Notes: generated by a model from the sequence alone, not told the origin. Positions 2,051 through 49,620 are shown, numbered from the stretch's first letter. The stretch is 64,000 nt of DNA from Blasia pusilla (GCA_050084515.1 CM114271.1:46996001-47060000), one strand, 5' to 3'. Made by a program: numbers and translations.

Positions 2051-2192
2051 TTTGTCATAAGATGCATGATTAACAAGTGAGACTGAAATCTTTCCTTCTT
2101 TGTTTCTTCATATATATGGATTTTACACTAGATTTAGATCCTTTATAGAGTATACACAATGTTATCTATTTTTAGATATTCATCCTAAAGAA

Positions 2193-3188
2193 TATCACAT
2201 CTTAGTTAACCATTGTGTAGAGTTCTATCGTATCAACGACGTAACAAGTTAGAAGGTCGTTCGAGCATATATTTATTTCGAGAAGTCTGTTATGCCCATA
2301 TACATTGTTGTCACCAAATATAATTCCATAAATAAAATATGTCATAATCACTCATGACATTTGAATAACAAAATAATTAAGTATAAAAATACCTCCAATA
2401 AATCAAAGATTACTCAAATCTCTCAAAAAATCTTCATCTCTCTCTCATGTCAAATCAAACTCATTCTCCTACTGAGAGGCTTGGATTACTTACAAGGCAA
2501 GGAGAACCATATCTCCGCCACCTCATGCCAAGAGGTTCAACAAACAGAGAATGAAATCAAAAGCTCTCTTTTATGGTATATACCTTCTCTTTCCCCCAAG
2601 CTCTCTCCACAATAACATGGGCTCGCAAGTTATCTCATTGGTTCTAGAACCACAATAGGGGGTCAAGGGTCACTTGTATAAGTAGTCAATTATGCTTATG
2701 TTAAAAACTTACCTCAAATGGTAGGTTCCTCAACATGAATCCAAATGAGCCAAAATAAATGAGAAACATATATCTCTCAAGGTATCATAGGCCTCAACAA
2801 GTCATCCTTGATCTCTTGAGCTTGTCCTTCAATCTCCTCGAAGGAAATCTACATATAGTTGTACATCCGTCTTAAAAGACATGACATCTCAGATGAAATT
2901 AGCGACTACTCGGTTGGATTAGGATTATCTTATAGTAAAATCCCTCTCTAGTGCTATTTGGGTTAGGTTATTAACATGTTGATCGATTCAAAAATCATCT
3001 GGTAAGTTGTGTGCGCACATTGCCAATATTGGGTTGTTTTAAGGGGAAGAGCCTTTTGGCTCTTCTTAGGGGTATATATGTGAGAGAGAGAAGGCTTCCA
3101 CAAGCCATTGTTATTATATTGAGCCTTTGTGAACATTCAGGCGTTTAGAATTTGTGTTTAGGGCGTAGCGATATGTATGTGTACAACA
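2193..3188 (+). mobile_element. Internally deleted unit of the same family (subfamily of 9521-11249), interrupted by a nested copy
   Basis: Starts TATCACATCTTAGTT (cf. TGTCACATCTTAGTT at 9521). Shares the TATA/GAGAGAGA/TTGAGCC block. Ends GTAGCGATATGTATGTGTACAACA. Flanks AGAA/ACAA. Confidence 0.7.
2288..2886 (-). mobile_element. Older A-B unit, inverted, nested in 2193-3188
   Basis: Reverse complement aligns with 1365-2050 (TGTCATGTCTTTTAAG...GGGCATAACA), with a direct A|B junction GATTTA|TTGGAG near 2400. Flanks AGTC/TCTC are each one change from the host sequence TGTC seen at the equivalent site near 9612. Confidence 0.75.
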
Positions 3189-9520: not shown

Positions 9521-11249
9521 TGTCACATCTTAGTTTGATGTAGGTAGAGTTCTATCGCATTTGACAGCATAGAGAGTCGGCGGGATATTCGGGTGTAACT
9601 TCATCCCGAGATGTCGGATGAGGTTGGCGACATGTCCTTTGTGTCGGGAACGTCGTTTATGGTGATTTTCTTATTTTGGTTTTAGTTCATCAGGTAACCC
9701 GTTGACCAGGTCAACAATCACCCAATAACCTGTGCACGCAGGTTACTGTTGGGAGGGCTATTTTTGGGGGAAGAGCTTTTTGGCTCTTCCCAAGGATATA
9801 AGAGTGAGAGAGATGGCTTTCTCAAGCTATCTTTCTCATGTTGAGCCTTAGGAGCGCCTCTCTTATATAGACGTATGTGGATGTGTAGGAGTTAGGGTGC
9901 TTGTGTCCGGATTCCCTCATAGCAGAGGGTGAATGTGGTTCGATATGTCGATGTAGATTCATGAGTGGAGTTTTATGCGGGGTGAGCCGTTTTTACTACT
10001 CTTGATTTTACATGGGAAAGATAAATCATAGCAAGTGTGGTGTCTGAGGATTCCCTCATAGAAGAGGATGGATGAGGCTCGATATTCAGAGGTAGTTGAG
10101 GAGGTGGTGGACTTGCCCTCAGAGCAGGTGCTCGGGATGTTCCCCACTGAGGCATGGCATGGTGCGGCAGCGAAGTTGGTAGATATGCCAGCTAGGCCAG
10201 CAAAAGAGGGAGCTATGATCACACCAGGTGTGATGTTGTTGGATAACCAAGCGAGAGTGTTTTGCTTGGTTAGTCCCACAGGTACGGTATACCACCGTAG
10301 CACGTCCTACTTGATTCGGGAGCCCAGCCCTTGATGTTAGGGAAGGCGGGATGTTTGGCGTTGGGTTTATGGAAAGGCGACAGCGAGCGTTGTCCCTTTT
10401 AGATACAGACCTGTATTGGGGGCGTATCACCCACGTAGTACATGACTCCACAGGAGTTGGTGGTTAGACTCCAGCCTGAGCATGAGTCGGATAGTGCGAT
10501 GGTGCGCACTCGAGCGATTATGACACCGACAGAGTCGTATGATATGTTAGTAGGGAGTACGGTGTTGTACCCTCTAGGTTTCATTCTAGATTTTTGGGAG
10601 GAGACAGTTTCATATCGACCAAGGTGGCAATCAAGTGATGGATGGGTGAGCCATCTACCGGTGCAGTTTGCAGGAATTAGTGGTGGTCAACCGCGTGAGG
10701 ATACGGTGACCACGTAGGCAACATTCACATGTGGCGTTCGTTGATCAAGAGGGTTTGGGGAGAGGAGTACACATGCGGAGGACATTTCTGTAGCGGACAG
10801 TCCCATTGAGAGACATGTCAGAGTGGGTGTCTCTTCCCATGGTGCAGAGCTTCTTTATTATTGTTGGGGACGAGCGTTGAGATGCATGGGGTGCAGACGA
10901 GCTCATGAGGCAGGCATGGAGCCGTGTCTATGTTTGGAGCAGGGTACGAGAGTGTTAGATCTCTTCGGAGGGATCAACACTACGGATTGCTGCAGTGTGG
11001 CAATGTTGCTGGGATGACGGCACCGATGGTGCTAGATGTGTGTAGGATAGGAGATCTTGTTGGGTATATATGTGTGTGATATCTGGAGTTATGGGACCCA
11101 ACTACAAGCTAGGGGGGCGGTTTTGGGGTCCTAGTGTATGTGCGTGAGTATGTTTCATTTATGTGTGGATATACCCGTATGTTGGGGAAGATCGGTGTTG
11201 TGTGGTGACCAGTGATGTGGATTGTGTAGCGATGTGTATGCGCACAAAA
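9521..11249 (+). mobile_element. Deleted A-internal-B copy of the DNMT-bearing Gypsy-like family
   Basis: TGTCAC start and CGCACAAAA end (consensus CGCACGACA), perfect ATAA TSD. A 9521-10010, self-complementary PBS 10010-10023, protease fragment, DNMT motif I, TAGGGGGGCG tract 11110-11119, then B. Confidence 0.85.
10068..10990 (+). pseudogene. Fragment of pol: aspartic protease region plus start of DNMT domain
   Basis: ORFs 10068-10334 and 10442-10717 align with ORF 55475-56641 (TPGVMLLDNQ; ESYDMLVGSTVLYPLGF.LDFWE). RVLDLFGGI near 10950-10975. Confidence 0.8.
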
Positions 11250-11714
11250 ATAAGTTACATGCATTTGAGAAGCATTGTGTACACAACTACTCGCCTGATT
11301 TGGAGTTACATGACCAGATTCATGCACTCAAACTTTTGTGCGCTATAAAGTAGATCCTTCTAACCAACAACATATATTGTTTAGGTCATAGGATTTGCGA
11401 TACACCTTAGTCCGGTCCATCGTTTCCAATTCAGATAATATTGCACATATTTGTACCATGTCTTATTATAGGTGTTTATTGTGTATTCTACCTTTGTGCT
11501 TAAGTATAGTCTTTGCTGGTCGATGTAAAAAAATTTCGGCCATTTTTACCATTGGCAAGCACCAACATGTACATTTTGAAGTAACTAGATTTTTTGGCAA
11601 CTTATGCTTCACGTTGTAGGTTAACAATGATTGAATAAAAGAGCAAGACGAAAAATGTGATTGAGATGCTCTGTTCAAATTTCTTCCAACTCAAAACTAC
11701 ATATTGCACGTTTA

Positions 11715-12150
11715 AATTTTGCATCATATTATACTTTAATAATATGAAGTTGATGCTAATATTGTACATTACAGCCAACACCTTCATATAATCATATTGT
11801 CTGCATTTCTCTGATGAGTTATTATTCTTATACATCTTCATTTCTCGCTATCTATTCAACACCCATGCCGATAAATTGCATCCTTTCCACATTATACAGC
11901 CTTTACACAGTAGGAAATGCCACCCATGCATCTCACCACTAAATATTGTTTTAATTTGCATCACATTATGCTTTGTTAATATGGAGTTGATGTTAATATG
12001 GTATGTTACTTCATTTTGTTTGCATTTCTCTGATGTGTTCTTATTTTGATAAATCTCATTTCTCGCTATCCACTCAACACCCCTGGCGATAAATTGCATC
12101 CTTTCCACATTACACAACCTTTCTATGGTGGGAAGCGCCACACATGCATT
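11715..12150. repeat. Two diverged tandem copies of a ~220-240 bp unit
   Basis: TGCATTTCTCTGATG...GATAAATTGCATCCTTTCCACATTA occurs at ~11802-11895 and again at ~12021-12112. Confidence 0.75.
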
Positions 12151-13129
12151 TCACCACGGACTATTGCCCAATAACGTCATTTCAGCTGGTCTTTTATCGT
12201 TCCTCTTTCAACATCTTGCTAATAGTTCTGGGTACGACGATAGATGTAATCCTACATATTGCTGTTGTTTGGAGGCAACTCATCACAACAATCCCGCTTG
12301 CTACATTTTTTACCAGTTCAAACGCTCATCCTTCCAATCCTTGTAGTAAATGACATTGCAGAAAATATAAGTCTATCAACACCATTCAATTCATGCCCTA
12401 ACACCCTCAATTACCTCAACTTTAGGGACTTTTGTTAGCACCTTTGCGCAAATTTCCGTCCCTATTAAGCAACAATAAACTGATTTTTTTTCCGTACTTC
12501 TTACCGCATGGAAAAAAGTGCAAATTTTCCCAAAATTTACCTCACTTATCTTATATTCCCCATGGCGAGGTTCATTGCAACGTTATACGCCACTTGTGCT
12601 AGGGGCCGCATACTTGTTAACTTATCTTGGTTGAGATAATTGTGCTTCACTAACTACCCTAGACTTACTTTGTATGCATGTTTGCATAAAAATGCACAAG
12701 TCCGTCCCTAAGATGGACATGGATAGACAAGTCTAGACATGTCCACCGACATGGATTGTAAGAAGTGCACTTTTGAGTGTTGGATTCAAAATATACTTGC
12801 ACCAACTAGGCAGCCGTGTTCCAATCACGATGGATCACCTTCTTGTGCGCCCCATCGGCCTCTGCCCACGTCACACCTTCGTATCATATTCTATTATTTT
12901 GTTTCTCTTGCAGTCATTACGACTTTTGCCCATTTCTTTGGTTTTATTTGTTCATTTTGAAGTTTTAATTACATTGTTAACTTAAAGAAGTGCAAATGAA
13001 CCTAAATATTCATTCAAAGAAGCCAAGTTCCACCTCAACCCTCCTCGTCCTACCTCATCCCTCCTTTGGCTTCCTCTCACACCTCAATGCAAGGAGAAGG
13101 GTTTCTCTAACCATATCCTCTAATCCATA

Positions 13130-14300
13130 AATCCACAACATGAACCCCAACTTTATTCTTCTTCATTTTTTGACCCTCCTCTTCATCAAACATTCCATGA
13201 ATCATGAAAATTTATCACAACATGCATTTGAGTGTCATGATCCCACGAGAAAAGGAAAATCTCCAAATGCCCACCATGGAAGGAATGAAAAATACAAAAC
13301 CGTAAATGTGCTTAACCACTTTTAGATTGAACATGAAGTATGATATGGAAGATCCAAACCCTCCAAGTACCAAACATCCTTATCATGCCCATGTCCCTCC
13401 TATTCTAGTTCAATCCAACAGTGGTGACTCATGATGCTTCAGTACAAAGATCAAAATTCAAGAAGATTATGAACATTACTCGTAAATCACTCATATTCTT
13501 CTTTCTTCTTCATTTTTTGGCCCTAATCTTTACCAAAGAGTCCATGAACCATGAAAGTTTTTTAGAACATGCACTTTAGCCTCTGGATCCCAAGGGAAAA
13601 AAAGAACTCTCCAAATGACCACCCATAGAGGGAATACAAAATCCAAAACCGTAAATTTGGTCTCTCGTTTTAAAATGGAACATGAAATATGATATGGAAG
13701 ATCCACACCGTCCAAGAGCAAGAAGGCCTTTGCAACCCCATATCCATATGGTTTCAGCTCAATCCAACAGTAGGATCTTATGATGTTTCACTACAAATAT
13801 CAAAATCCAAATAAGACTTGGAACATTACTCGTGAATCCCTAATCTTCCGCTTTCTTCTTCATTTTTTGGCCTCCCTTTAATACAAAGTCCATAAATCAT
13901 GAAATTTTGTCACAACATGCATTTAAGTGTGAGGATCCTAGGGGAAAAAGAAGAAATCTCCAAATGACCACCCGTAGGGGGAATTAAAAATCCGAAGCCC
14001 TAAATGTGGTCTCCCATTTTTAAATTGAACATGTTATGGAAGATCCACACAATCCAAGAGCAATAGGGCCTTTGCAACTCCACGTCCCTATGGTTTCAGC
14101 TCAATCCAATGATGGGAACCATAAATATTTTCTCCTATTTTTAAATTGAAGATGAAGTATGCTATGGAAGATCCGCATCATCCAAGAGGAATAGGGCCTT
14201 TGTAACCCCACATTCCTTTGGTTTCAGCTCAATCTAACAGTGGGAACTCATGATGCTTCAGTACAAAGATCAAAATCCAAAAAAAACTTGCAACGTTACT
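13130..14300. repeat. Diverged tandem array, ~345-bp period (about 3 units plus a partial)
   Basis: Anchor TATGGAAGATCC at ~13344, 13693, 14035 and 14163. TTCTTCTTCATTTTT, TCTCCAAATG and TCAATCCAA blocks recur. Confidence 0.8.
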
Positions 14301-14689: not shown

Positions 14690-16290
14690 ATCAATGACGC
14701 GACATTGCCTCACATATAACATTGGGTGCTGCCTTATACTCAACCTCTATTGAAGATAAAAAAAACTATAAGTTGCTTCTTAGAAGCTCAGCTTATATGT
14801 GTGCTTCCCGAAGTGAAGGAATAACTATAAGTAGAATATCTATTAATTAGACATGATTCCTATCCAATCAGCATATGTATATCTCTCCACTTATAAACTT
14901 AGAGAACCTTTAAATTTATGCCCAAACCGAACATAGAGTATCACATATTGCATAATCCTCCACACAACACCAATGTGAGGTTTGTGAAATGCTTGCATGA
15001 ATTGACTTATTAATCAAACTGCAAAGCTTAAGTCAAACCTAATTAAAGTTATACAAATCAAACTTCTAACCATGTGCTTGAACATATTGGAATTTGCAAG
15101 CAACTTTCCTTCATCCAATATTGTCTAACAACATAGATATTGGCTTACAAGTTGTTATACTATATTTTGAAAGCATATGAAGAGAATATTGTCATTATAA
15201 TAACCATATGTTGTGTCCAACCTTGATAAACTCAACACCAAGGAAGTAATTAAGTTCTCAAAATTCTTTCATATCAAATCTCTACCTATAACTTTAGCTC
15301 AATTTGTTGTACCATATCCTTAGAACTCACACTAATCAAGACGTTACCAACATATAATACAATGATAATTGTATGACCTTTTCTTCTGAAAATGTGTAGT
15401 GAGGAATCAAAACTATCGACCTTTATGTCAAACAAACTCTCGTAAGACATACATAATTTTGCCTTACTAAAATCTTGGAGCCTCGCTTGAATACATATCG
15501 AGCTTTCTTTAACATGCATATGCTTAATCCAAGTGGTTAAGCCGCGTATACTTCCTCGTGAAAATCTCCATTCAAGAAGATATATTTTAATATCCATGTG
15601 ATGTAGTCTTCATTTCTTATTCATTCTAATTGCAACTACTATTCTTGTAGTTGCCATCTTTGCAATGGGGCTAAATATCTTCTCATAGCCAATACCATAT
15701 TTTTTTTATAGCCTTAGATACCAAACTGGCTTTGTATTTGTTTATTGTACAATCTTGATTATATTTGACCTTGTAAACCCATCTAGATATATGATTAACA
15801 GTTTTCTTACCTTGAGGTATATTAACCAGCTCCTAACTCTATTCTTGTCTTAATGCAACAAGTTCTTCCTCCATATCTTCAATCTATCCGACCTTACATG
15901 CAACTTCATAAAAACAACTTGGTTTATGTTCTTCAAGGGCAATCATCACATATTCATAATGTATTGCAAGAAATCCTTCATTTATAAATTTATAAACAAG
16001 ATGTATAACTCCCATTGATCTACAAAGTTGTTGTTTAGAGGTATTATCCTCTAACATCTAACTTGAGCTCTGACTAGTATCAACAAATTGAACATGTATT
16101 CTTTCCGACCATGAATTGAAAAGTCCATGATCTTTTGTGACCTTGCACTAGTACTTGGAAATTTTGTAGGTACTGTCTATAGATTTATAGTCATTTTCTC
16201 AATCTCAATAGACATGATCATAAGTGGAATGAATTCAAATGGAGCATACAATGACTTCAACTTATAAAAAACAACATTGCAACAAATAAT
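14690..16290 (-). mobile_element. Decayed Ty1/Copia pol (end of integrase, RT, start of RNase H)
   Basis: Minus-strand fragments KYKASLVSK, YEKIFSPIAKMATTR, HHMDIK, VLYVGNVLI (YVDD equivalent) and LNYFLGVEF. Similar to 49621-50922. Confidence 0.85.
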
Positions 16291-19004
16291 ACACTAGAAA
16301 GATGTTTGTGCGATGCACGAAAAATAAAGAAGGATTTGAAGAGCTTTTGTTAGTGTATAGCCCGTGAAGGGAAGGGATTAATGATAATTAATGTATACAA
16401 ATTCAAACTTTTTTTCTTGCTGCCTAGTTGCCACATGTCAAACATAGAGGTGTTTGCAAATCAAGAAGGCAAGATGATATACTGCAAAACTATTAATTAT
16501 ACTTGATAATAAAACTGAAATAAAAAGATAAGTAATAACAAAAAATCTATTTACTTTCCAAAACTTAAATGGAGAGAGGGAAAGAATAGGAGACTAGAGG
16601 AGGAATAGGAAGGAAAAAAATCAAGCCTAAATGGAGAAGAGGAATTAGTATTAGAAGGGGATTTCTTCTATTTTTCTTAAGGTGAAAAGAATTTAGAAAG
16701 AAGGGAATTAGTTTAAAATATAATAAATAAAAAACTTAGGTTCGGTACCCCAAACATGCCTAGGTTCTATACCCTGAACATGCCTAGGTTTGGTAGCAAG
16801 GCAGGTTCGGGCTATCAAACCTATTCACCCAACCCCTCCCGCCGCCTTCAAAAATCAAACGGCTCTCCTCGCTCAACCTAGATCTACTAGTCCATATTTG
16901 CTTCAAACGTGGATGTTACATATGGCATCCGACGGCTCCCATCAACTGCCACTCTCCCACATTTCCCCCTTCCCCTTTCTCCCCTACCCCCTCCCCTCAC
17001 TCCAAAGGAGTCCATTTTTTACCCTTCACACTTTGCGTCCCGTCCCTATCGGCTCTTCACAGATCGACCCTTCACACTTTGTGTCCCACCCCAGTTCGCA
17101 GCCTTGTTGAGATTGTCCCGCCCCTGATCGGCTCTTGGTCATTCTTTCTTGGCTCTTCTCAAGTTCTCGTGGTGCTCGACTCTTCTCAGATGCTTGATCA
17201 TGTTGTGCGGCTCTTGCTTGGCTGCTCGTGATGCTCAACCCTTGGCTCAGATGTTTGTGTTGCAGTCATATCGTTGTCCTTGTGTGTATGGAGCTCCTCA
17301 CTTGAGAGGAGCTCTGCGCACTCAAGAGTTTCTTTTCCCTCTTGTTTCAGTCACTCTTTTCCCGAACGTGATGTCATGCTGATTTTCGCCGCACCCGTCT
17401 TCCTTTACTCTATGCAAATGGCACTTTTGATGTCGTTGTGCGCACCAAGAGCCTCTCTCCTATCCCCTCTCCTCTGTGGGCTTCCTGATGCACTCCCGAT
17501 ATGGAGGTGGTTTAGACTCCTAGATCTCAAAGTTTGAGACGGTGTTGGCAGGCTGGAAGATTTGCTTCCACGTGTGGTTTTTGGGAGTTACTATTTTGCG
17601 CTCGTGTTTGGAGGTTGGTTGCAAGTCCAATCCGGCTCATGTTTGCACGAAGGGCTTCCTTCTCACCTGAACATGCTCACCCGCAAATTTTCCCGCACCC
17701 TCTACGTTGCTACCTCTCCTTCGTGGGCTTCATGCGCGGATCTTTCTTGCAAGAAAAAATCAACCATAGTGGGTTACTGCCATTGCACGAACCAAGAGAG
17801 TACCTTCGACGTGGGCTTTGAGCCTCGGCGCATCGGCTTCTTGCGGGTAGGGAGGGGAGGGAAGAATATTGGCATGTCTTTTTAGTATCAAAAGTTGTAG
17901 TGGGCCTTAGAGTGGCAAGCGGGATTGGGCTTGAGGGTTGTTACATCTGCGTGCGCAAGTAGGGTAAAAGTCTAGAGAACTCAAGTTGAGTACTCTGAGA
18001 CAGAGAAGGCTGAGTGTAACACATTTCATCTTACACCATGTATCCACAAGTAGCTTTCATTCTCAAGTAAGTTTTACATGTCTGTAGATTGCTATGCTAC
18101 TCCGGATCTGCAGAGTTGGGTCTTCCTAGCTACCAAGTCAGAGCACAATTTGGATATTCACTACAACACCTTTCCCCTTTTCCCCTTTCTGAGGCAACTT
18201 CTTTGTCGCCTTGTGATATGATTTGGGTGTAGTAGGCACATGAAGATCGACCGAGCATCTCTCGTGAAATGGTGAGCTACGCTCTTGTGGGTTGGGGTGT
18301 GGTAGTTTATGTCATTTCTTCGCAGATTGTCCCTCGATGGCGCATCCCTTTTTGTTGCTAGGCCTCCTAAGATTATAAGGGGGAGTCCCTTGGACTTCGA
18401 ACAGGACCTCATTTCTAGAGCCTCCCATAGGATTTGGAAAATACCCTTTGTCTGAAAACATAGGCTGTTCTCTCGTTGGTAGGGAGTCTTTTATTGCATC
18501 TTCGAAGCCGGGAGCGTGCTTGGGTATAAGTCTCTCACCCCAAGGAGGAGTATTGCGGAGGTGGGATTTCTTCCACTTACTCAAATGCTTACAATCCTCT
18601 TGGGAAATTGGAGACCATTTGGAGATCTCCAACGCTTGGAGATCAGCCGACTTTACATTGTAGTGCCTTTTTTATTATGTGATATTGGATACACTTTTTC
18701 CCTTCCCTTGTGTCGATTTCTCTGTTGTGATCCTCGTTGCCATTATATCTCGTTATATTATGTTGGCGAGTATGCTTGCAAGGTTGAGTAGGTATTTTTT
18801 GGCGCAAAAGGAAGGGACGGGAGTAGTTCGCGGCCTATCGAGCACAAGGTGAAGTCGAACCTAAAGGAGCACTTAAAGCTAGTTGGCGTTGTTGCAAATT
18901 GGAGTTAATAGGATTTTTGTGGACTAGAGTTTTTGAACCCGAGCGTTATTCAAAGATTTGTCGAGTACCTGCATTACAACAGGCAGATCGACCCGTTGAG
19001 TAGA

Positions 19005-19372
19005 TGTCATGACCATACGGATTATGTCGTAGAGTATGGTGTGCTGGTAGAGGCCATTCCTTATGTAGGACCGTAGTGGCTTGGTAGAGATGTGGTTCCA
19101 TACATAGGGTTGGGGGTTACTCACTTGGGGGTGACTTTCCTAGTAGGGCCCGCTCTTAGGTTGGAGGATATAAGGTGGCTTGCCCTCAAAGAACAATCAG
19201 TTCTTTGAGTTGAGCCTGTTGCGTTGGGAGTTAGCCTTGGTAGTGAGTAGAGCTCTTGGCTATGGTGTTTCCCGCAAGCTTCGACCTGGATTCTCCCATC
19301 GTGGAGTGGGTTTGGCTCGATTGTATGTGATTGTAAACGTGTTTTATGACAGTAGGTCTTTCACGGATTTCA
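19005..19372 (+). repeat. Repeat A1 (368 bp)
   Basis: Direct repeat of 28162-28529 with 3 substitutions by manual comparison. Confidence 0.95.
19169..19210 (+). promoter_or_regulatory. TATA box and predicted transcript 5' end within A
   Basis: TATAA at 19169-19173. CAGTTCTTTGAGT starts 29 nt later and is followed by TTGAGCC. The same spacing is seen at 9797/9828 and 29849/29878. Confidence 0.6.
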
Positions 19373-19384
19373 CTCAAAGAACTG
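19372..19384 (+). other. Putative self-priming primer-binding site
   Basis: ACTCAAAGAACTG directly after A1 is the exact reverse complement of 19198-19210. There is no TGG-starting tRNA PBS at this position. Confidence 0.75.
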
Positions 19385-20616
19385 GAGTAGATCGATGGTA
19401 GCTTCGATTGTAGATCAGTAGGATCTGGTCAGGGCTGATTGTGTACTCAGCCGTGGATGTTCGTGGCTTGTGGCCTATGTTGGAGGTGTGAATCTGGTGC
19501 GTAGTTGATTGAGAAAGAAGCGCCTTGCTGAGAGCTTTCCAACGCGCTGTAGATCGCCGGATTTCGTCAAGGGAGTTGGAAGTTATCAAGCATTGAAGAT
19601 TCTGGTTGTGTTCGACAGTTTTCTGATGTGGAGAGCTTGGAGTGCGGAAGCTCTGTTGAAGTTCATCCAGATCGGGTGAGAGGTTCCTATTGCTACTTGT
19701 ATTGTGATCTCATGTGAAGCTATCTGCTCGAGTGTGTGGAGCGTTGCGGATTTTTGCGTGCATGAAACTTGGCGGAAGCGCTGTCGGATTTGCGGTTCTA
19801 GAGGTGTATGGACAACAAGTTTGTCTGATTTTTAGCTCGGAGTACGGAGCTCAAAACCCTAAAGCGTTTTGAGGCTTCGAGGCAACTCGTGGTAGCTCGG
19901 GGCGAGTGGGCGTGAGAGGCGGAGTAAGGAGCAAGGAGCAAGCAAGCAAGCAAGCTTGCTTGCTTGGGCGTGAGGCAATTTTTGCAGGATTTGGGATTTG
20001 AGTTTTGCATAACTGGTCACCCATCTTTGGGCTATTCTGCCTGGAGGACGCTTAATTGCCGAGTTCTTAACTATGCCTTGCATGCATTGTTGTAGCTCAT
20101 TTGGTGTTGTTCGGAGATGTGTTAGGCGCTTTATGCATCTCAGGTTTTGGTTGATGTACCTCTAGCGCATAGTACGGTGTAGCCTCTCCATGCGGTGATA
20201 TTTTCAGGGTCTTTGCTGGCGTTCGACTAGCACGTCATCGACTGCGGCGGAGTAGCTAGCTATTTGCGTTAGAATTGTGTGGTGGGTTTTGTGGATTCAG
20301 AGGGCACCACGTTTGGTGGATTGTGTTACCTTGATTTCCATTTGCGATTGGAGGGTTGTCGTTGGATTTCTGTGTTTGGATCCCCTCCATCGTGCTTTTG
20401 CTTGCTTGGCGCCCATTGTTAGGGTTGACGCTGATTTCCAGAGTAGTGTTACTCCTGTGTGCTACCGGTAGTGAGGCTGGAGGGATGACGAGTAGATTGT
20501 GGGAGACTTCTTGTGGTGATGACAAGTTAGGTTGCCTACACCCATAGCTAGTAGAGCTAGAATAGTATAGCGACATCGACGTCACTTGGTAATTTGGTGG
20601 TGGTGCGGCATCGGCG

Positions 20617-22100
20617 TTGGTCATCACGGAGTCTGCCGGGTGGTCGGTTGGGGACCGTGGTGCGGACAGTGGTGGTTTCACACGGAGTGGATTTAGGTAT
20701 CGGCTACATTTTCCACTTCCGACGATTGATGAAGAGGAGGACGAGGGTGTTCCAAACACCGAGTCTTCTACGTTGTTATCGAGTGTTGCAGCTCCATTGA
20801 TTTGGGACATGGACGGTGGATATGGGGCCATGAAGGGCCCACGACGATACTCGGGTGCAGTGGGTACCATTGAGTTGGAGGACTTCATGCAGGAGTTTGA
20901 TACGTGGTGTGATATGCAGATGTTGCGGAACGCCACGTTGTTTACACCCTTCTTGGCTTGGAAGGGGTTGTTTCAGCACTTGGAAGGACCACCCATGGAT
21001 GATTACCATGAGTTTAGGAAGGACCATGTTGCTGAGATTGAGGCATGGAGACAATATTGGTCTCCAGGCTATGTGTCTATCACCCATGGTGGTATTGGTA
21101 GTAGTGCTCCTACTATGCCAGCCAGCCCGACGCTAAGTGGTACGAGTACGAGCCGAAGTGGGGGTACCAGTGGAGGTACTAGTGGGGGTACTAGTGGAGG
21201 TACTAGTGCCCCACCATCGTTTAGCCTGGTTTCAGAGTTCTTCAAGAGGTTGAAGAAGAACTATCAAGGAGTGAAGACGGAGAAGTTGAGGAATCTTCAG
21301 GACTTTGAGCGAAAGACTGGTGAGAGTCTTCGTGAGGCATACACGCGTATCGACGCTTGATTTCAGATTACCAGGGTGTGCGAGGATCGAGCGATCCGAT
21401 TTTGGTATGGGATCTTGGACAGAGATTTGCGCCGTAGGGTACGTGATGCTACTCTTATGAGTGATGATTCACCCACATTGACCCATGTGTTTGCTCTATC
21501 TGAGAAGATTGAGCTTAACATGGTGAAGGAGAGAGTGGTGACATCCGCATTCAGTAGGGATACAACTACTACTTCTCGTGTTCAGCCGCCCACCTCATAG
21601 TCTCGTAGTAGTGGTGGTGGTAGTAGTAGTGGGAGTCGTGGGGGGTACACGCGACCTCAGTCAAGTCCTAGAGGGACATTTGTGCAGAGACCATTGCCTT
21701 CATTTGCTGCCCCGCAGCAAGGACAGTCATGTTGGACATGTGGAGGTGATCATGTTAGGAAGTTTTGTCCCCAAGAGGATGGGAGACGGACTTTGGAGGA
21801 TGGGCCTCAGTCGGCCCTAACTCAGTGTGATCATTGCGGGAGACTAGATCATCCTCGAGAGCGTTGCTTTGATCTTCATCCAGAGTTGAGATCAGGCCGT
21901 GGCCGTGGTGGAGTAGCTCCGAGAGGCCGAGGTGGTAGAGGTGGTAGGGGTGGTAGAGGTGGACCGGTGGTTGGAGAGCCCACGGTGGCTACCCTACCTA
22001 CCTACGACGCAGTCGCCTATGGTCGCCAGATTGAGCAGATTGGAGCGAGTGGTTGGCTACTATGGTGGTATCCAAAGATAGATCAGGTTCGGGAGCAGGG
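20617..22100 (+). pseudogene. gag-like region, frameshifted
   Basis: ORFs 20617-21360, 21376-21600 and 21682+ carry a Gag-like FERKTGESLREAY motif, two zinc knuckles (CWTCGGDHVRKFC, CDHCGRLDHPRERC) and an RGG tract. Homologous to ORF 56705-58342. Start codon uncertain. Confidence 0.85.
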
Positions 22101-22649
22101 GCTTCCACCTCTTATGGAGGGGATGATCTCTCTTATATGGCGAGAAAAGACAAACGAGTTGAGGCATCACCGCAGCGATTCTGAGAGGAGCCACTCGAGC
22201 GTCGAGCCACGTGGTGCTCTTGTGGAGTTGGACCCGAGGGATGAGGCGGGGGAGGCGAGGCTAGGCTTCCCAGTCATTCTTGTTGTCCGAGGTGCTTACG
22301 ACTCCATCCATGGTTCCTACGTTGACCTATTGAGCGGCGGTGGGGATCGAGGTATCTACATCGCGTGTAGTAGACACGGATGCAACATCCAATGCAAGAT
22401 TGCGGATGGAAACTTCGGTGTTGGGATCCCCATTGTTTTGCCACGGAGTCGATGGCTTTAGGAGTTGACTTAGCTCTTGTATTTGATTAGCGACCACGTT
22501 ATGTGAACGTGGGGGTATTATGCTACACGTGTTGAGGTGGATGAGGGTGTTGCGGTGAGCGACCCTCTATGTCGGAGTAGCATTGAGTACCGGTGCTACT
22601 TGGCGGCAAAGGCGTCAAAGATGGATGCATTACCCCCCGCCAGCCATTG

Positions 22650-23110
22650 ATCGTGAGAGGCTTACACTGGTGTATGTATGTTGGACAACCGGAGTGGGAT
22701 CTTCCGATTGGTGAGTCCTACAAGACAAGTGTATGGACAGATAGAGTCTTGTTAGACTCGGTGCCCAACCTTGATGTTGGGAAAGGCGGCATGTATTGGT
22801 TTGGGTATTCGGAGGTCGAGCTTGAGCCTTGCCCATTCCGATTCAAACATCACTTGGAGGAGCCAATGATAGGTCTCAATTCATGACACGGGAAAAGTTT
22901 TTATGAGTTGAGACCGGATCATGCGATCGATAGCTCCCGGTTGGGAGTATCTGCGGTAGTCACATCACCGAGTCGTATGATGTACTAGTTGGAGGAGCGA
23001 TTGTACCCGATGGGTTTTCAGATGGATTCTTGGATGAGACAACGTCTTCTGAGACCTGGTTGGCAGTCCGGGATGGACGTATGAGCCAAGTTCTGTGAGA
23101 TTTATTTATG
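22650..23110 (+). pseudogene. Retropepsin-like aspartic protease, frameshifted
   Basis: RVLLDS(GA) at ~22743-22765, ELEPCPFR and ESYDVLVGG, matching the protease region of ORF 55475-56641. Confidence 0.75.
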
Positions 23111-23459
23111 GGGCTCGACCAGGAGGGTCTTCCCCAATGAGTGTTAGCATCTCGTGGGTGGTTTTAGTGGAGTAGTCACTTGGCTAGGAGACTTTTGGAG
23201 GGTAATGTTTCGCTATGGATTCTCCTGCGCATGAGGAGGTAGAGGAGGTCCCTATTTTTGCAGCAAAGTGGCATCCTCATCGTTGGATGTGCCACTTTGG
23301 AGTTCAGCGGTGCACTACGGCAAGAGGTTGATCGCCTAGTGCAGGAGGCTTGGTGTGAGGTGTTATACCTCACGAGGAAGAGGAGGCCCACGGCGGACTC
23401 CTACTTCGGTCCATTAGGTTATCCCTTTGGATACTACACCCATTGTATGGGCAAGTATC

Positions 23460-24410
23460 CGGAGGGTATTTGTGTGTTAGATCTCTTTGGTGGGATTAGC
23501 ACTGGTTTGGCTGCGATGTTGCAGGCCGGTATTCTGTCTTGGAGATACGTGTATGTGGAGCGAGATGAGACGGCCCATAGAGTCTCATCTCGACATATTG
23601 GTCGATTGATGTGAAGATACCATGAGTTGTTTCCGCCATCACTATTCGTGGGTACCGGCGTGCTTTACCATCACACATTGCATTGTTGAGGCGCGCAGGA
23701 CCTTGAGAGGGTTGGTCCTGTGGATTTGGTGATTCTTTGGATGGCCATGTCGAGGGTCATACACGTCTTTGGTCGTGGTGAGGGATTACATGACCCTAGG
23801 TCTCGATTGTTTTGGGAGATGTTACGGGTGTTACGACATCTTCAGTTCATCGCACGTGCTCTAGCTTACATTCGGAGAATGTTCCATTGTTGGATGACAC
23901 TCGGACCCGGATGATGGCGAGTGTTCATGAGGTGCGGTCTTGGATTGGACCAAGCGGTGTTGTTGGATGTTGAGTTGGCTCGCGTGCACATCGCCCACGC
24001 TTGTGGTGGACAAACTTGTTGCCTAGGGAGGTTCTACGTCGAGCATATGATGCGGTCTGGCGGGATCCTCGCCTTACAATGGATAGTATCTTGAATCTTG
24101 GCGACTTTCTCAAGTGGTGAGGGTTATTGATCGGTCACCCATGGTAGTGGTGAACCGTGTGGGCGACCTAGGATGGCACTACCCACATTTGTGAGTTTTC
24201 GCGTCACATGCCCACGGGGAAGGTGGTCCCGGGCTTGTATGGGATTCTCATGTGCGGCGGTTGGTGGAGCCTAACGCTGATGAGAGAGAGCGTGCGATGG
24301 GATTTACTCTTGGCGTGGCGGCGGTTGCTTCTATTTTTGAGGCTTCACGACGTCATGTGTTGGGTCAGGCCATGGACTGAATTGTTTGACTTGGATTTTG
24401 AGTCTTGGTA
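23460..24410 (+). pseudogene. C5 cytosine DNA methyltransferase domain (DNMT3-like) inside pol, frameshifted
   Basis: Motifs in canonical order: VLDLFGGISTG (23474-), YVYVERD, WPC (23742-23750), ENV (23875-23883), SRAHRPRLWWTN (23980-24015), ERERAMGF (~24285). Confidence 0.9.
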
Positions 24411-24779
24411 TGACCGAAGCGTCGACTTCGGGACTATGTCGTGGGTCTTCCATCCCTTGTAATGAGCTCGATGGCTCCGGACGGTAGAGGCATCGGTAGA
24501 GGCAGGAGAGTAGTATTTTGCATCCTTGGAGTAAATGGGATGTAATGGTGGGCATGTGGAGTTGGTTGCTCATCTTTGGTGGAGGAGTTATTTGCTCGGA
24601 TGATGGTGTAGCTAAGGGTGTACCATCTTGTGAGGGGGTTGCGTAGCGACCAATGGCATAAATCCTCTCCCTCTAGTATGCCGGTGGAGGAGACTTGGGA
24701 GCCATTACTTGGGCCCAAGCTTACGGGAGGTGAGAAACGACGCTGACCACGGTTCCTACGTGCTTATAGGAGTTGTTTT

Positions 24780-26130
24780 GCCTTTAGCATGAAGGAGTTG
24801 GGTTCTCTGGTTGGACCGGTATACATGGATTGATTTGGCTAGTGATACGCCAATCTTCCGTCGTCCCTATCGATATAGTGATATGGAGAGGACTTGATTG
24901 AGTAGGACGTTGGACCTTTTGGAGGTGGATTAGTGGAGTTGTCGCATGGAGAGTATGCATAAGCCTTTGTCATGCTCGCTAAAAAGGATATGCATGGCAA
25001 CTACGGATAGGCGGATGTGTGGAGATTACCGTCCTATCAATCGGCAAACCAAGGCCGATAGGTATGCCATGCCTACACTGAGGAGATCTTTGATGTGGTG
25101 GGACATGCAAAGATTTTCAGTATTTTGATCTTCGAGCAAGATACCATCAATTGCCGATTCGGGAGAGTGACAAGGCCAAGAGAGCATTTTGGGGTGTCAA
25201 CTCTCATGGCAAGGATTGTTTGTACCGGTGGAAATTCTTACCCTTTGGGTTGAAGAATGCACTGCCGAGTTTCAAAGAGTGATGGATAGGATCCTAGCAG
25301 GGTTGGATTTTGTTCGGTGTTACATTGATGATATCTTGGTGTTCAGTAACACGGTGGAGGAGCATCAGATACATTTGCAGATGGTGTTTGAGCGGTTGAA
25401 AGCTCATGGTCTACGTTTGGATCCAGGAAAGTGTAAGTTCTTCCATGAGGATGTTGAGTACTTGGGTCATGTGATCTATCCAGGTGGTTTGGGAGTTCAG
25501 CAAGCAAAGGTGGAGGCTATTGCACTTGTTCCGCGTCCGGTAGATGTGAGTAGAGTTCGAGCATTCATGGGATTGGCGAACTATTATCGGAGGTATGTGA
25601 AGGGATTTAGTGCTATGGCAAAGCCTTTGAACCAATTGCTGAAATCAGATCAAGAGTGGCACCGGGAGATGATCAGAGAGAGCTTTTGTGGAGCTTAAGG
25701 CCCAATTGGTGGTGGCGCCTATCTTGAGGAGACCTATCGAGGGCGCCCATTCGATTACACACCGATTGGAGTAGGTGGGACTTGGAGCGGTGTTGACACA
25801 ACATGATGATGAGCACATGGAGTTTGTGGTGGCCTATGCAAGTCGTTCGAATAATGCAATGGAGGCGCGCTATAGTTCATATGAGGGAGAGTGCTTGGCA
25901 AGAGTGTGGGGTGGGCACACTTTAGGTGTTACTTGTTTGGCACCCGGTTTACCCTTATTCGATCACCAACCGCTCAAGTGGTTGATGGAGTCGGACAAGC
26001 TTACTAAGAAGGTTTGCACGGTGGGCTCTTATCTTACAGGAGTATGACTTCCAGGTGGTACATAGACCTGGAGTTGCCAACCTTGATGCTGATGGGTTGA
26101 GTAGGAACCCATGTACTAGCCAAGAGGATA
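24780..26130 (+). pseudogene. Gypsy-type reverse transcriptase and RNase H, frameshifted
   Basis: RMCGDYRPIN, LPFGLKN, CYIDDILVFS, YLGHVI, FMGLANYYRRYV, GLGAVLTQ, VVAYASR, DHQPLKWL, DADGLSR. Confidence 0.93.
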
Positions 26131-26499
26131 CAACAGGGGCTAGATGGCATGGCGAGGTTGATGAGGAGATGGTGCCAGGTTGGCATGCATCCGCCTTTTT
26201 ATGTTGGTTAGGTGGACTCTAGTATGGAGGACCACATGATATCTTACTCTAGTCGAGGGTAGATGGCCACCTTGAGATCCTAAGGTTGGAGATGGTGGTA
26301 CGGATCAGCGTGATATTCATGATGATGCGTTGGTGTTGGAGTTCCTACGGACCGGTAGGGTGCCAGGCATAGTGAGTGCCAAGGAGCGAGACCGTGTTCT
26401 TCAACGTGCTAAGAGGTATCGATTGGAGGGAACACATATTCTCGCGTGTGGGAGGATGGTAGAGTATGAGTAGTGCCACATTTGGCTCGAGAGAGCGCG

Positions 26500-27330
26500 A
26501 TTGTGCGACATGCCCATGAGGAGTTGGGACATTTTGGGGTAAAGCGACGTATAGCTTACTCCTTGGCCAATATTGGTGGCGTGGCATGCATACTCAGTGC
26601 GGCTAGATTGGTGTCACGTTGTATGGTTTGTGACCGGTGAGGGCATCATTTAATGCCCCTACACCACAATTACACCCCTTGCCTATTATGGGGTTGGGTT
26701 ACCGTTGGAGTGTGGACTATGCGGGACCGTTATCGTTGGATCACGACATCATCGATATGTGTTGGTGATGGTGGAGCACTTCTCCAAGTGGATTGAGTTG
26801 GTGGCATTACCGGACAAGGCGAGTGAGGAACGGCGTATGCGTTTTGGATAGAGTGCTTAGTCATTTTGGTGCACCACGGTGAAGTGTTGACCGACCAGGT
26901 ACAAAGTTTGTGGTGAGTTTCAGGTCTTGTGTGACAAGGCGTTGATTGATCATCGGACCACGCGTCTTGAGATCATCCCAGGCGGATGGTTTGGCTGGCG
27001 TGTGGTTCAAACGGTGAAGAGGGCATTGCGCAAGTATGGCCTCTGAAGGGCATCTTGGAGACTGGGATATTCGTTGCCATGGTTAGCCATGGGGTATAGG
27101 TTCGATCGCCAAGCATCCTTGGCTTCCTTCTCACCTTATTTTTCGTTTATACGGCCGAGATCGGACTTGCCAAGATCAATTGCGTCGGGAGTCTAGTGAG
27201 GTGGTGAACCTTGATGACCAGAGATGTGGATGAGGGTGTGTTCTCGCGAGTGGAGCTCTTCGGAGAGTTATGCCAGCGACCTTTGAGAATCTTGCCATTG
27301 CTCAACACGGGGATACGTTGCGGTATGCAG
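26500..27330 (+). pseudogene. DDE integrase, frameshifted
   Basis: HEELGHFG...CMVC zinc finger, WSVDYAGP, VEHFSKWIE, VLTD, HP.ADGL, SFSPYF..YGR. Confidence 0.88.
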
Positions 27331-27739
27331 GTTATCGACCATCGATTCGTAGGTTCCATGTGGGGACCATTTGGGTGGAGGTTATCGACCATCGTGTTAG
27401 CTTCGAGGTTCCATGTTGGGGGACTATGTCTGTTTGGAAGGACCATGTGCGTAATTGTGCGCCATGTCATCTTCCAAATGGATGGATGTATTGACCCAAG
27501 CTTAGCCATTTTAGCTTGAGGTGCATGGTGTTAACGCAGGAGTTCTCTATGTCTATTTGGAGACAACGTTTGACGGAGGCACTATTTTGTTCGTGAGGTG
27601 TTAGTTTGGAGTTCTCATGTTGGAGGGTCGTGATGGAGTTGTTTGGAAGGACCATGTGCGTAATTGTGCGCCATGTCATCTTCCAAATGTGGATGGTATC
27701 TTGTTGACCCAAGCTTAGCCATGATACGTGCTAGCTTGA

Positions 27740-27882
27740 GGTGCATGTTTGTGGGTCTCTGTGTAACGCACCCGTATGTTGTGTGTGATCGGTGTTCTAG
27801 GGGTTGGCACATGATGTGTTTGACTCCACGTTTGGATGTTGTTCCATCTACTTGGAAGGTGGGTTTGTCCTCGATGTACTTA
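27740..27882 (+). pseudogene. PHD finger at the C-terminus of pol
   Basis: RCM...VCDRCSRGWHMMCLTPRLDVVP...CPRC, matching the intact C4HC3 finger at 51240-51374. Confidence 0.8.
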
Positions 27883-28044
27883 GGAGAGGTAGATGACTTG
27901 ATCTTTGCATGATATGGATTACGGATGTGCGACTAACGATGGGGCAACCTAGCACCCGGCCTTCGATTCGGGCATCCAAGAAGGTGTATAGCATGTAGTA
28001 GATGTATAGGGCTACCCGGGAGTTAGAGGGACCTAACCGCCGAT

Positions 28045-28053
28045 TAGGGGGCG
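28045..28053 (+). other. PPT-like G tract immediately before B1
   Basis: TAGGGGGCG. The same TAGGGGGGCG motif precedes B at 11110-11119 and at 51051-51060 (minus strand). Confidence 0.65.
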
Positions 28054-28158
28054 AGTTGTGGTACACTTGCATTTGTGGATACTCGTCTATGTTATGTATG
28101 TATGTGCGTATGGTATGTCGGCGATGTATGTTGTATGGCGATGTGGATTCATACGACA
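28054..28158 (+). repeat. Repeat B1 (105 bp)
   Basis: Direct repeat of 28529-28635 (about 6 transitions and one 2-bp indel). Ends GACA and is followed by ATT and then A2. Confidence 0.92.
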
Positions 28159-28161
28159 ATT

Positions 28162-28529
28162 TATCATGACCATACGGATTATGTCGTAGAGTATGGTGTG
28201 CTGGTAGAGGCCATTCCTTATGTAGGACCGTAGTGGCTTGGTAGAGATGTGGTTCCATACATAGGGTTGGGGGTTACTCACTTGGGGGTGACTTTCCTAG
28301 TAGGGCCCGCTCTTAGGTTGGAGGATATAAGGTGGCTTGCCCTCAAAGAATAGTCAGTTCTTTGAGTTGAGCCTGTTGCGTTGGGAGTTAGCCTTGGTAG
28401 TGAGTAGAGCTCTTGGCTATGGTGTTTCCCGCAAGCTTCGACCTGGATTCTCCCATCGTGGAGTGGGTTTGGCTCGATTGTATGTGATTGTAAACGTGTT
28501 TTATGACAGTAGGTCTTTCACGGATTTCA
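28162..28529 (+). repeat. Repeat A2 (368 bp)
   Basis: Copy of 19005-19372. Begins TATCAT instead of TGTCAT. Confidence 0.95.
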
Positions 28530-28635
28530 GTTGTGGTACACTTGCGTTTGTGGATACTCTCGTCTATGTTATGTATGTATGTGCGTATGGTATGTCAGCG
28601 ATGTATGTTGTATGACAATGTGGATTCGCACGACA
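28529..28635 (+). repeat. Repeat B2 (107 bp)
   Basis: Joined directly to A2 (GGATTTCA|GTTGTGG). Ends CGCACGACA, followed by the TSD. Confidence 0.92.
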
Positions 28636-29541
28636 TAGAGCTACTTGAAAGCTTACCCTTCTCGACTACAATAGTAGAGCCTTGAATAATACATAAGTGC
28701 ACAATAGAGCTCTAAGATCCCTAACACAACCTACTATATAGTTGTTATCGACTAAAGAAATAAATCTCAACAGCTTAAGCCTTTATGGCTTCTGTAAAAC
28801 AAAATGCATGTGTGTAAAAGCAAACCTCTTTTAAGTAACGGCTTGGAGTGCGCGCAATGAATGGAGTCTTTCAATTGGATGGAAGCAATAAATATTTTGT
28901 TATGTAAGCTTGAAACCCTAAGTGTGGCATATGATAACTCTTCGAGAAATGGGAGGATGTCTACATCGACGGATGTCCCTTGTCAAATCGTAATTTTCAG
29001 CAATACAAAATTGAAACCAAAAAAAAAAATCCATTAAAACATTTTGCGGCAGATCTACAGAGCATCCATGAAAACCGAAAACCATAAGATGATCACGTGG
29101 GAAACATGCGCCCCACGCGGCTCAAAAGGGAGTCATATGTGAGGAATGCTCGAAAAGAAATAGAGCATACTTTCATTTGTGCAAAATGCCACGTGTCAAT
29201 AACGCGAGAGTTTGCACTGCAAGAGAGCATTTGTGCGTAATATCATTTCTTTTTTAGATAATGGAATGTAGCACTTATATCCCTGTAGTTTCATCAACAT
29301 GGCCAATGAAGATACATCTCTCAGATTTAAGATATAATTAATTTCTCTCATCTCTCAAAAGAAACAGGTGCATAACAAATACAACCAAAAGATTTTAGGA
29401 ATAAAATATCTTCCATACTGCATATGAAGAGGTCAAATTAATTCTTATCATGAACTTGTGAAGTTAGAGTTTGATTTATTAAGACTATTACACACACTAC
29501 AACGTCTTTCCAATAAACATTAGGTATGTTCTTCTCATTTA

Positions 29542-30394
<853 letters not shown>

Positions 30395-30559
30395 TTTAAC
30401 ATAACACGTTCCGCCTTAACAATATATCGATATTTCTACTTAACCACTCCATTTTATTGTGGATTGTAATGGCAAGTGAATTTTCATTCGATGAAATTAT
30501 GCCTTAAGTATTCATTAAAGTATGTTGATAGATACTTTCCTCCTCCATCGTAATATTCT

Positions 30560-36282: not shown

Positions 36283-36376
<94 letters not shown>
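36283..36376. repeat. (AG)47 microsatellite
   Basis: Read directly from the sequence. Confidence 0.97.
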
Positions 36377-39208: not shown

Positions 39209-39800
39209 TGTGGTGTCGACTTACGAGCAACAAGGAGGCTCGAAGTTTGTTTGGCACTAAAATATGAGGTTGTAAAAAAATTCAATGTGTAATTTAAGTA
39301 CATATACAATTATTTTTTCTAAGAAGAACACTTCATTTTTCTTAAAGGATTATAGTCCCATACGTATATTATTATCGAAGAGCGCCTTCTTGATTTGCAA
39401 ACACCTCATTGCTTGACATGTGGCAACCGGACATTGAGAAAATGTTAAATTAAAGGTTAATATAAAGGCATGTCGTACGATGTACACTAAACAGAATAGT
39501 AAGTGTGGTGTCGACTTACTAGCAACGAGGAGGCTCGAAGTTTGTTTGGCACTACAATATGAGATTGTAAAAAAATAATGTGTAATTTAAATACATATAA
39601 AATTATTTTTTCTAAGAAGAACACTTCATTTTTCTTAAAGAATTTTAGTCCCATATGTATATTATTATTGGATAGCGCTTTGTTGATTTGCAAACACCTC
39701 ATTACTTGATATGTGACAACCAGACGTTAAGAAAATATTTTCCTTTCTATGGGCAGTAAGAAAATTTTATTTACATCGTAATTAATCCCTTCACTTTCAT
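39209..39800. repeat. Tandem duplication (~295-bp period) of a dispersed repeat also found inverted at ~16365-16470
   Basis: TGTGGTGTCGACTTAC...TGATTTGCAAACACCTCATT starts at ~39209 and again at ~39505. GTTGCCACATGTCAA...GAGGTGTTTGCAAATCAAGAAGGC at ~16427-16470 is the reverse complement. Confidence 0.85.
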
Positions 39801-49600: not shown

Positions 49601-49620
49601 TAAAGTCTAGGCTCCATTTA

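Follow-up and report, generated by a model that had tools for sequence, protein, structure and literature searches.

A Ty3/Gypsy-type retrotransposon in a 64,000-nucleotide (nt) stretch of Blasia pusilla DNA (GCA_050084515.1 CM114271.1:46996001-47060000; here called the window, in whose full length all plain coordinates are given) carries split terminal repeats in the order A-internal-B-A-B, written A-int-B-A-B below, and this order is, as judged from the copies compared, the normal full-length form of its lineage. A preliminary description of the window had proposed the same layout, together with a route by which it could arise. We hold the structural reading of the element with high confidence. 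The full proposal, in which a Gypsy lineage with a DNMT3-like methylase has a reverse-transcription long terminal repeat (LTR) composed of B, 2 nt and A, and in which the joined complementary DNA (cDNA) would be opened by the integrase at a palindrome inside this LTR, seems to us to have slightly better than an even chance of being correct.

A repeat finder and a BLAST comparison of the window with itself both gave, over 19005-28635, the order TAGA, A1, internal region, polypurine tract (PPT), B1, ATT, A2, B2, TAGA (Table 1), confirming the layout and the coordinates first put forward. A1 starts with TGTCATG and B2 ends with ACGACA; in this copy, A2 starts with TATCATG and the internal junction reads GACA-ATT-TATC. 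As described before, a single TAGA target-site duplication (TSD) surrounds the whole unit and none was found around A2-B2 alone in the window copy, and other copies have 4-bp TSDs too. A chance origin of the layout is excluded because of the length and identity of the repeats and because the same layout occurs in independent copies elsewhere. The A1 and A2 repeats are 99.45% identical over 366 nt, with mismatches at three of 368 sites (19006, G/A; 19194; 19196), and B1 and B2 are 92.5% identical over 107 columns, with one 2-nt indel. The B pair thus differs at 8/107 columns versus 3/368 sites for the A pair (Fisher p = 1.6e-4), in an element whose genes are badly broken. The greater identity of A1 and A2 suggests gene conversion between the A copies; in four other copies, divergence between the A repeats equals or exceeds that between the B repeats. 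The window element itself is, to all appearances, an old, inactive and broken copy of Ty3/Gypsy type.

The layout was then compared across 80 related metagenome loci (679,437 nt), found with integrase-PHD homologues and consisting of short-read contigs, which are prone to break at repeats; the 52 loci of at least 5 kb were compared with themselves, and BLAST with A and B was added. Complete A-int-B-A-B elements were found in L057 (an insertion also represented by L053 and L054), L068, L072 and L076 (the same as L077), and L071 has a B-B spacing like that of L072. Further 3′ ends of the form B-A-B are present in L008, L032 (the same as L049), L040, L042 and L075, as well as in L023 (the same as L036), where B is only about 8 nt long, and in L079 the contig end interrupts A2 after B-A. 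In all, at least 12 independent copies have the split layout, and they come from several diverged families and assemblies. Perfect 4-bp TSDs (TAGA, CATA, AATC, TACA, ATGC, TACA) surround six of the eight elements for which both flanks were available, and the other two match at three of the four nt. At the 12 independent complete 5′ ends, B was never found upstream of A1, and no conventional two-LTR copy was seen. A second form, A-int-B, which is about as common and in which B is followed directly by unrelated DNA, was found at 11 loci with distinct flanks and in a second copy within the window. A 5′ repeat was searched for in the short-B family (L016, L018, L020, L023), and none was found. Contigs from other sequencing runs of the same organism contain the B end, GC plus TG and the A start, and one contig of 506 nt reads B-GC-A-B. 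Nothing that would have refuted the preliminary description came to light as far as this could be checked, with no conventional copy at the 12 independent 5′ ends and no recombinase. Word depths summed over contigs (27700-28642, two runs) range from 10^3 to 10^5, which indicates that the family is highly repeated in the source organism. The L057 copy lies between direct repeats of about 0.9 kb (1045-1960 and 15479-16582 in L057 coordinates) of about 80% identity, which are probably the LTRs of another element hosting the insertion.

The signals for reverse transcription stand at positions that define a different LTR from the one that the outer ends would suggest. In every family, a G-rich purine tract ends 0-1 nt before B, and the 10-12 nt that follow A1 are complementary to a segment within A, some 27-30 nt 3′ of a TATA-like box. 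A primer-binding site (PBS) complementary to the element's own transcript start is the signature of self-priming in the Tf1/sushi elements. In the window element, the complement is exact over 12 nt, which none of 500 shuffles reached, and it is 11 nt long in L029 and L061. Complementary segments of 9-12 nt are present in seven of 11 copies, and segments of 7 nt in two more, including a doubly compensated pair in L076; the separate L072 family has a different pair of sequences at the same position. In the alignment of the 11 copies, 87% of the cells pair, compared to at most 49% when the partner is slid, and changes on both sides were found in three pairs, a count reached by 14 of 500 shuffles. 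From these data, we infer that the site after A1 is a self-priming PBS of the Tf1 type, the transcript start being predicted from the TATA-like box. The PPT 5′ of B means that B starts U3, and the putative self-priming PBS 3′ of A would mean that A ends U5, so the reverse-transcription LTR would be B, 2 nt and A. The preliminary description had already placed the PPT before B and the PBS after A and had read the LTR as B+A; to this we add that the PBS appears to be self-priming rather than of the transfer RNA (tRNA) type. The possibility that the true LTR is AB, with deletions, was also considered and is ruled out, as the PPT-B and A-PBS junctions recur in every copy.

Within the LTR defined in this way, the integrase-type ends TGTCATG (start of A) and CACGACA (end of B) stand back to back as an imperfect inverted repeat of 7 bp. 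Two nt separate the end of B from the start of A in the L057 family, where the canonical junction is GACA-GC-TGTC. The 80 loci (679,437 nt) contain the exact 10-mer GACAGCTGTC 17 times, compared to 0.44 expected, with a single occurrence per locus and invariably 3′ of the integrase match; it is also kept in families that are GC-rich and very diverged and that have a B of 8, 66 or about 200 nt. At the joint between A2 and B2, the last base of U5 lies next to the first base of U3, with no indel in ten out of ten independent copies. We therefore regard it as likely that the internal palindrome is an integrase attachment site. Such a site, written as GACA-att-TGTC inside the LTR, had been suggested from the window alone; the suggestion gains from the conservation of the palindrome in very diverged relatives, with the difference that the window copy itself reads GACA-ATT-TATC. 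The TA that stands in place of TG at some internal junctions is read as decay at methylatable CHG sites. A hypervariable spacer, with the joint between B and A made anew in each cycle, was considered and rejected, because every variant (GC, AC and AT; TG to TA; CA to TA) amounts to a transition at a CAG/CTG site of the palindrome and because GC is conserved in distant families.

The coding content assigns the element to the Gypsy type. The coding strand is the + strand and is heavily broken, the longest stop-to-stop frame being 286 aa, and Pfam was run on the stop-to-stop pieces. The protease region of the window element gave no match in the Pfam search, and neither did the DNMT fragments of this copy, for which the domain was recognised via homologues. 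A protein search with one frame of the second copy gave 20 homologues, 15 of which contain PF00145, with names from Calypogeia, Marchantia and Sphagnum, and one homologue of 1888 aa combines RVT_1, RNase H, PF00145, H2C2, rve and PHD. The Marchantia protein P0003 (gag, knuckles, protease (PR) and DNMT) aligns along 20809-24556 of the window, and P0019 and P0020 align along 24829-27880. All 24 of the solved-structure matches to P0003 are DNMT3A, DNMT3B or DNMT3C, while the best PDB match to P0019 is the Ty3 Gag-Pol polyprotein (1e-74), with the integrase of prototype foamy virus (PFV) at 4.6e-19; PF00145 is also present in the related locus L079. The Pfam, homologue and structure matches together identify this as an element of the Gypsy type that carries a DNMT3-like domain and, at the C-terminus, a PHD finger. 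Hence, its order reads gag, PR, DNMT, reverse transcriptase (RT), RNase H, DDE integrase and PHD finger, and by its predicted proteins it is a member of a streptophyte lineage with a DNMT3-like methylase. These domains fill the entire coding space of the element. As the preliminary description had stated, there is a DDE integrase and no recombinase: Phage_integrase, as the mark of a tyrosine recombinase, matched none of 50 open reading frame (ORF) pieces, which were taken from the two window copies and three related loci on both strands, and is missing from the Pfam lists of the 20 homologues.

The DNMT domain lies in the interval between PR and RT in the window element and the Marchantia type and in the interval between RNase H and the integrase in another integrase-PHD sublineage (P0019/P0017; loci L012-L023). 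As the GACAGCTGTC junction is kept in both sublineages, the DNMT domain must have changed place later than the origin of the split-repeat layout. The window element has a local duplication (27394-27527 and 27598-27747; about 209 bp, 80% identical overall, with 50 nt identical), which lies between integrase and PHD finger and is single in the second copy. The coding strands of both window copies are rich in G+T (18001-28000 and 52001-60000; GC skew about +0.2 to +0.28, AT skew about -0.12 to -0.18), which is unusual for the coding strands of retroelements.

In the integration route that we propose, an RNA that starts within A1 and ends at a poly(A) site in A2 would contain B1-GC-A2 and lack B2, and the standard reverse transcription of this RNA would produce BA-int-BA. 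The U5 end would then be joined to the U3 start, in the manner of a 2-LTR circle or through end joining around the integration step. Since B follows A precisely at the end of every full copy, we place a joining of the U5 end to the U3 start, and an opening of the molecule at the upstream palindrome, in this scheme. The integrase would nick after CA on both strands of the upstream palindrome CA-GC-TG, leaving two recessed CA-3′OH ends with 2-nt 5′ overhangs, which is the form of 3′-processed retroviral ends, and the integration of these ends would give A-int-B-GC-A-B. The A-int-B form could come from a cut 1-LTR circle, from a linear cDNA cut at both palindromes, or from a later deletion between B repeats. 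A terminally redundant A1-to-A2 RNA could be transcribed only from A-int-B-A-B, and the A-int-B form, lacking such an RNA, should be a dead end.

A precedent exists in the PFV and HIV-1 integrases, which are reported to cleave the palindromic LTR-LTR junction of 2-LTR circles (PMC1180852, PMC1905944). There, as in the window element, abutted ends a few nt apart are the substrate of a DDE enzyme, the cleavage in the present case being deduced; the retroviral junction exists only in the circle, whereas in the window lineage it is permanently encoded in the LTR and copied through RNA. The circle route itself, for which the opening of a two-LTR circle had been proposed as the source of the layout, falls in our estimate just short of an even chance: the structural part of that proposal is supported, and the circular intermediate stays a deduction. 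A broader suggestion is more tentative still, and we think it somewhat more apt to fail than to hold. It is that an ancient clade of DDE-integrase elements keeps a ready-made circle junction, CACGACA-GC-TGTCATG, in its LTR, that the cutting of this junction in circular or end-joined cDNA is obligatory, and that the 2-LTR circle would be productive while the 1-LTR circle would lead to the dead-end A-int-B form. The circle junctions of the IS3 family and of IS911, in which abutted ends are likewise the substrate of a DDE enzyme, offer an analogy.

Several observations weigh against the proposed route. The circle step has no direct observation behind it, and no intermediate was seen. A 2-LTR circle opened at its other palindrome should yield the mirror form A-B-A-int-B, which was found at none of the 12 independent 5′ ends, although its differential loss through deletion between A repeats could be the reason. 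The precision of the A2/B2 joint in all ten copies is more uniform than end joining might give. At the internal junction, the window copy and two others have TA instead of TG, and such a site could not be cut. The covariation in favour of self-priming is modest, with three compensated pairs among closely related copies. All examined copies are decayed, and none supports current activity. Finally, contigs from four other sequencing runs cover the element, and none covers its 3′ flank (28643-28900), so that the locus is without independent read support.

The uniform joint and the missing mirror form speak for the alternative that the reverse transcriptase itself adds B2. In that case, the enzyme would switch templates once more, passing from the U5 end to the U3 start, and so produce a linear BA-int-BA-B, whose natural right end and cut left palindrome would be integrated with no circle. 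A directional, templated step of this kind fits the precision of the A2/B2 joint (10/10) and the absence of the mirror form (0/12) better than the symmetric opening of a circle does. However, the A end and the B start share no homology or microhomology that is consistent across families, and the L072 family has no overlap at all. To our knowledge, no third template jump of this kind has been described in LTR elements, and we consider the alternative unlikely.

The divergence of the window repeats could also point to homologous recombination, in which a 1-LTR circle or cDNA would cross over within A with an A-B unit already present in the chromosome, without any action of the integrase on joined cDNA. 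As a matter of logic, a circle of B-GC-A-PBS-int-PPT crossed with an A-B unit gives exactly A-int-B-GC-A-B, and B2 could be the older repeat, as B1 and B2 of the window are far more diverged than A1 and A2. However, pre-existing A-B units are required, and these would themselves need the A/B joint; the full copies, moreover, stand at different sites, each within a perfect 4-bp TSD of its own. A1 and A2 should then be hybrids of old and new sequence rather than 99% identical, and the four other copies mentioned above do not have the excess of B divergence. We regard this crossover as quite improbable. It is more doubtful still that the element is of the DIRS/PAT/Ngaro type, with its tyrosine recombinase lost, undetected or supplied in trans, and we would give this reading very little weight. 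Its A1-B1-A2-B2 layout does define PAT, Toc, Kangaroo, Ngaro and Viper (PMC4157794), yet the ORF pieces and homologues are devoid of Phage_integrase (0/50 and none in 20), the domains from gag to PHD leave no coding space unassigned, RT and RNase H have their nearest match in Ty3, and the ends are TG...CA with 4-bp TSDs. The idea that a conventional two-LTR Gypsy element was rearranged in a single case, took up a nested insertion or was misassembled, to which the uncovered 3′ flank of the window copy might point, is hardly tenable and already refuted at the family level, given that at least 12 independent copies share the layout with TSDs of their own, that contigs of other runs contain the A/B and B-GC-A joints and that the second window copy also has its PPT directly followed by B.

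The proposed reading, that of a Gypsy element opened at a palindrome within its LTR, can be set beside the known systems. The preliminary description knew of no Gypsy lineage with such a layout; this does not hold, since KnitGypsy-Dnmt3 of Klebsormidium nitens was noted as having a DIRS-type repeat structure and a Gypsy domain composition (Figure 4c legend, de Mendoza et al. 2018, PMC5890265), and a "Gypsy-DNMT3" of streptophytes is mentioned in passing in a preprint (bioRxiv 10.64898/2026.05.21.726589). As described in the 2018 text, KnitGypsy-Dnmt3 resembles the window element in its Gypsy polyprotein, in the Dnmt3-type methylase in Pol and in the DIRS-type A-coding-B-A-B repeats, the two being compared by description only, and the relatives of the window element bear liverwort and moss names. 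The portion of the account consulted contains no mention of a PHD finger, a 4-bp TSD, self-priming, a palindrome or A-int-B derivatives, which are features of the window lineage. No published treatment of the mechanism, palindrome, TSD or self-priming of such Gypsy elements was found in a search that left most subscription journals outside its reach. Hence, a split-repeat Gypsy element was already noted in 2018, and the window element is a new case of bryophyte type, for which the comparative anatomy given here appears to exceed the published record.

PAT, Toc, Kangaroo, Ngaro and Viper, whose definition by split direct repeats A1-B1-A2-B2 was cited above, resemble the window element in the order A1-int-B1-A2-B2, with the internal repeats 3′ of the enzymes (PMC4157794). 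They use a tyrosine recombinase, whereas the window element combines a DDE integrase and a Ty3-like RT with TG...CA ends and 4-bp TSDs; the resemblance is, on these domains and ends, one of convergence and not of membership. With Ty3 and canonical Ty3/Gypsy elements (Metaviridae), the window element shares the order PR, RT, RNase H and DDE integrase, a CCHC gag, the PPT, TG...CA ends and a short TSD. In contrast to their two equal LTRs between the PBS and the PPT, the window element has A only as its 5′ repeat and a 3′ block of B-A-B, its integrase ends lie inside the RT-defined LTR, and a PHD finger and a DNMT domain are added. In Tf1/sushi and the plant Tcn1 clade, as is predicted for the window element, the PBS complements the transcript 5′ end and not a tRNA; self-priming is predicted for moss Tcn1 elements by Neumann et al. 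2019 (PMC6317226). The window element differs from Tf1/sushi in having a C-terminal PHD finger instead of a chromodomain, and split repeats are not reported for that group in the portions of the literature covered.

The second copy in the window, which is related to the first and is of the A-int-B type, has longer open frames (567, 391 and 281 aa) and clearer Pfam matches to RNase H, H2C2, rve and PHD. Its gag frame contains two CCHC knuckles, and a protease-like stretch and motifs resembling a C5 methylase were recognised by eye. No A-like sequence was found at its 5′ end, where there is only a weak leader alignment (score 48, versus 26-33 for ten shuffles), and the copy is therefore treated as truncated. 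Directly next to it lies a repeat of another kind (48945-50602), either Copia-like or otherwise bearing rve, which has a further match at 14707-15665. The family of the second copy also includes three short units that start with TGTCAC or TGTCAT and look like A-(short internal)-B derivatives rather than clean A-B units. The unit at 1365-2051 contains a 43-nt inverted repeat (1675-1717 versus 1882-1924) just before B′, and the unit at 29542-30395 has an expanded (GA)n(GT)n at the position of the PBS. Elsewhere in the window, 10077-10669 is a degraded fragment matching the protease region (P0003 residues 569-727), and tandem or microsatellite repeats are found at 11687-14300, 29983-30100, 36283-36376 and 39194-39739, comprising arrays whose period is about 240-350 bp, (GA)n/(GT)n tracts and one direct repeat of 295 bp.

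Table 1. Features of the split-repeat element and of related sequences in the window.
Feature	Position	Strand	Basis or remark
5′ TSD, TAGA	19001-19004	+	identical 4 nt at 28636-28639
A1, TGTCATG...TTTCA; TATA-like box TATAA at 19169-19173; predicted transcript start	19005-19372	+	repeat comparison
Putative self-primer segment, CAGTTCTTTGAG	19198-19209	+	about 27 nt 3′ of the TATA-like box; complement of the 12 nt after A1
Putative self-priming PBS, CTCAAAGAACTG	19373-19384	+	adjoins the 3′ end of A1
gag remnant	20809-22169	+	tblastn with Marchantia P0003 residues 1-449, 63% identity over the first 376 columns; CCHC knuckles in relatives
Protease-region remnant	22271-23300	+	tblastn with P0003 residues 484-794; motifs by eye in the second copy
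DNMT3-like cytosine methyltransferase remnant, broken	23614-24556	+	tblastn with P0003 residues 900-1217
Reverse transcriptase remnant	24829-25650	+	Pfam RVT_1, E 1.7e-16; tblastn
RNase H remnant	25775-26144	+	Pfam RT_RNaseH, E 1.8e-13; tblastn
DDE integrase remnant, H2C2 zinc domain and rve core	26306-27480	+	weak Pfam H2C2, E 0.0091, and rve, E 0.013; tblastn with P0019 and P0020; clearer in the second copy
C-terminal PHD finger remnant	27608-27880	+	Pfam PHD, E 3.8e-4; tblastn
Polypurine tract, AGGGGGCGA	28046-28054	+	directly 5′ of B1; homologous G-rich tracts at the same place in relatives
B1, end ACGACA	28054-28158	+	repeat finder, self-BLAST
Spacer ATT between B end and A start	28159-28161	+	2 nt in relatives, canonical GC
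A2, start TATCATG	28162-28529	+	repeat finder, self-BLAST
B2, end ACGACA	28530-28635 (from 28529 in the repeat comparison)	+	A2/B2 joint TTTCA/GTTGTGG
3′ TSD, TAGA	28636-28639	+	matches 19001-19004
Second related copy, 65-75% nt identity, 5′-truncated, ending PPT-B′-flank without A2-B2 (A-int-B type)	50922-59960	-	self-BLAST
Short A...B′ unit of the second copy's family, TGTCAC...ATGACA, flanks CTTG / TTTG	1365-2051	+	comparison within the window
Short A-(remnant)-PPT-like-B′ unit of the second copy's family, TGTCAC...CAACA, TSD TTTA	29542-30395	+	comparison within the window
Third short unit of the second copy's family, ending in B′	2340-2888	-	comparison within the window

In the textbook account, LTR retrotransposons and retroviruses integrate a linear cDNA that ends at the LTR ends, and circles count as by-products. 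In the window lineage, the integrase ends lie inside the reverse-transcription LTR, and therefore a linear cDNA could not be integrated by its LTR ends and an internal cut would be required. This brings within reach of tests the old question of whether a palindromic junction can be the normal substrate of a retroviral-type integrase, in plants that can be grown and transformed and with Marchantia relatives that have long open frames. For annotation, it means that LTR finders expecting two equal repeats will miss such elements or place their boundaries wrongly, and that dating by repeat divergence can mislead, as A1 and A2 are 99% identical versus 92.5% for B1 and B2. The combination of a DNMT3-like methylase with a PHD reader makes the lineage one of interest for epigenetic self-targeting. 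If the broader suggestion of an obligatory circle junction is true, these elements would offer a natural case of circles serving as precursors of integration, a role at odds with their long-standing view as retroviral dead ends, and LTR retrotransposons would have converged on the split-repeat logic of the tyrosine-recombinase elements and on the circle-junction transposition of the IS3 type.

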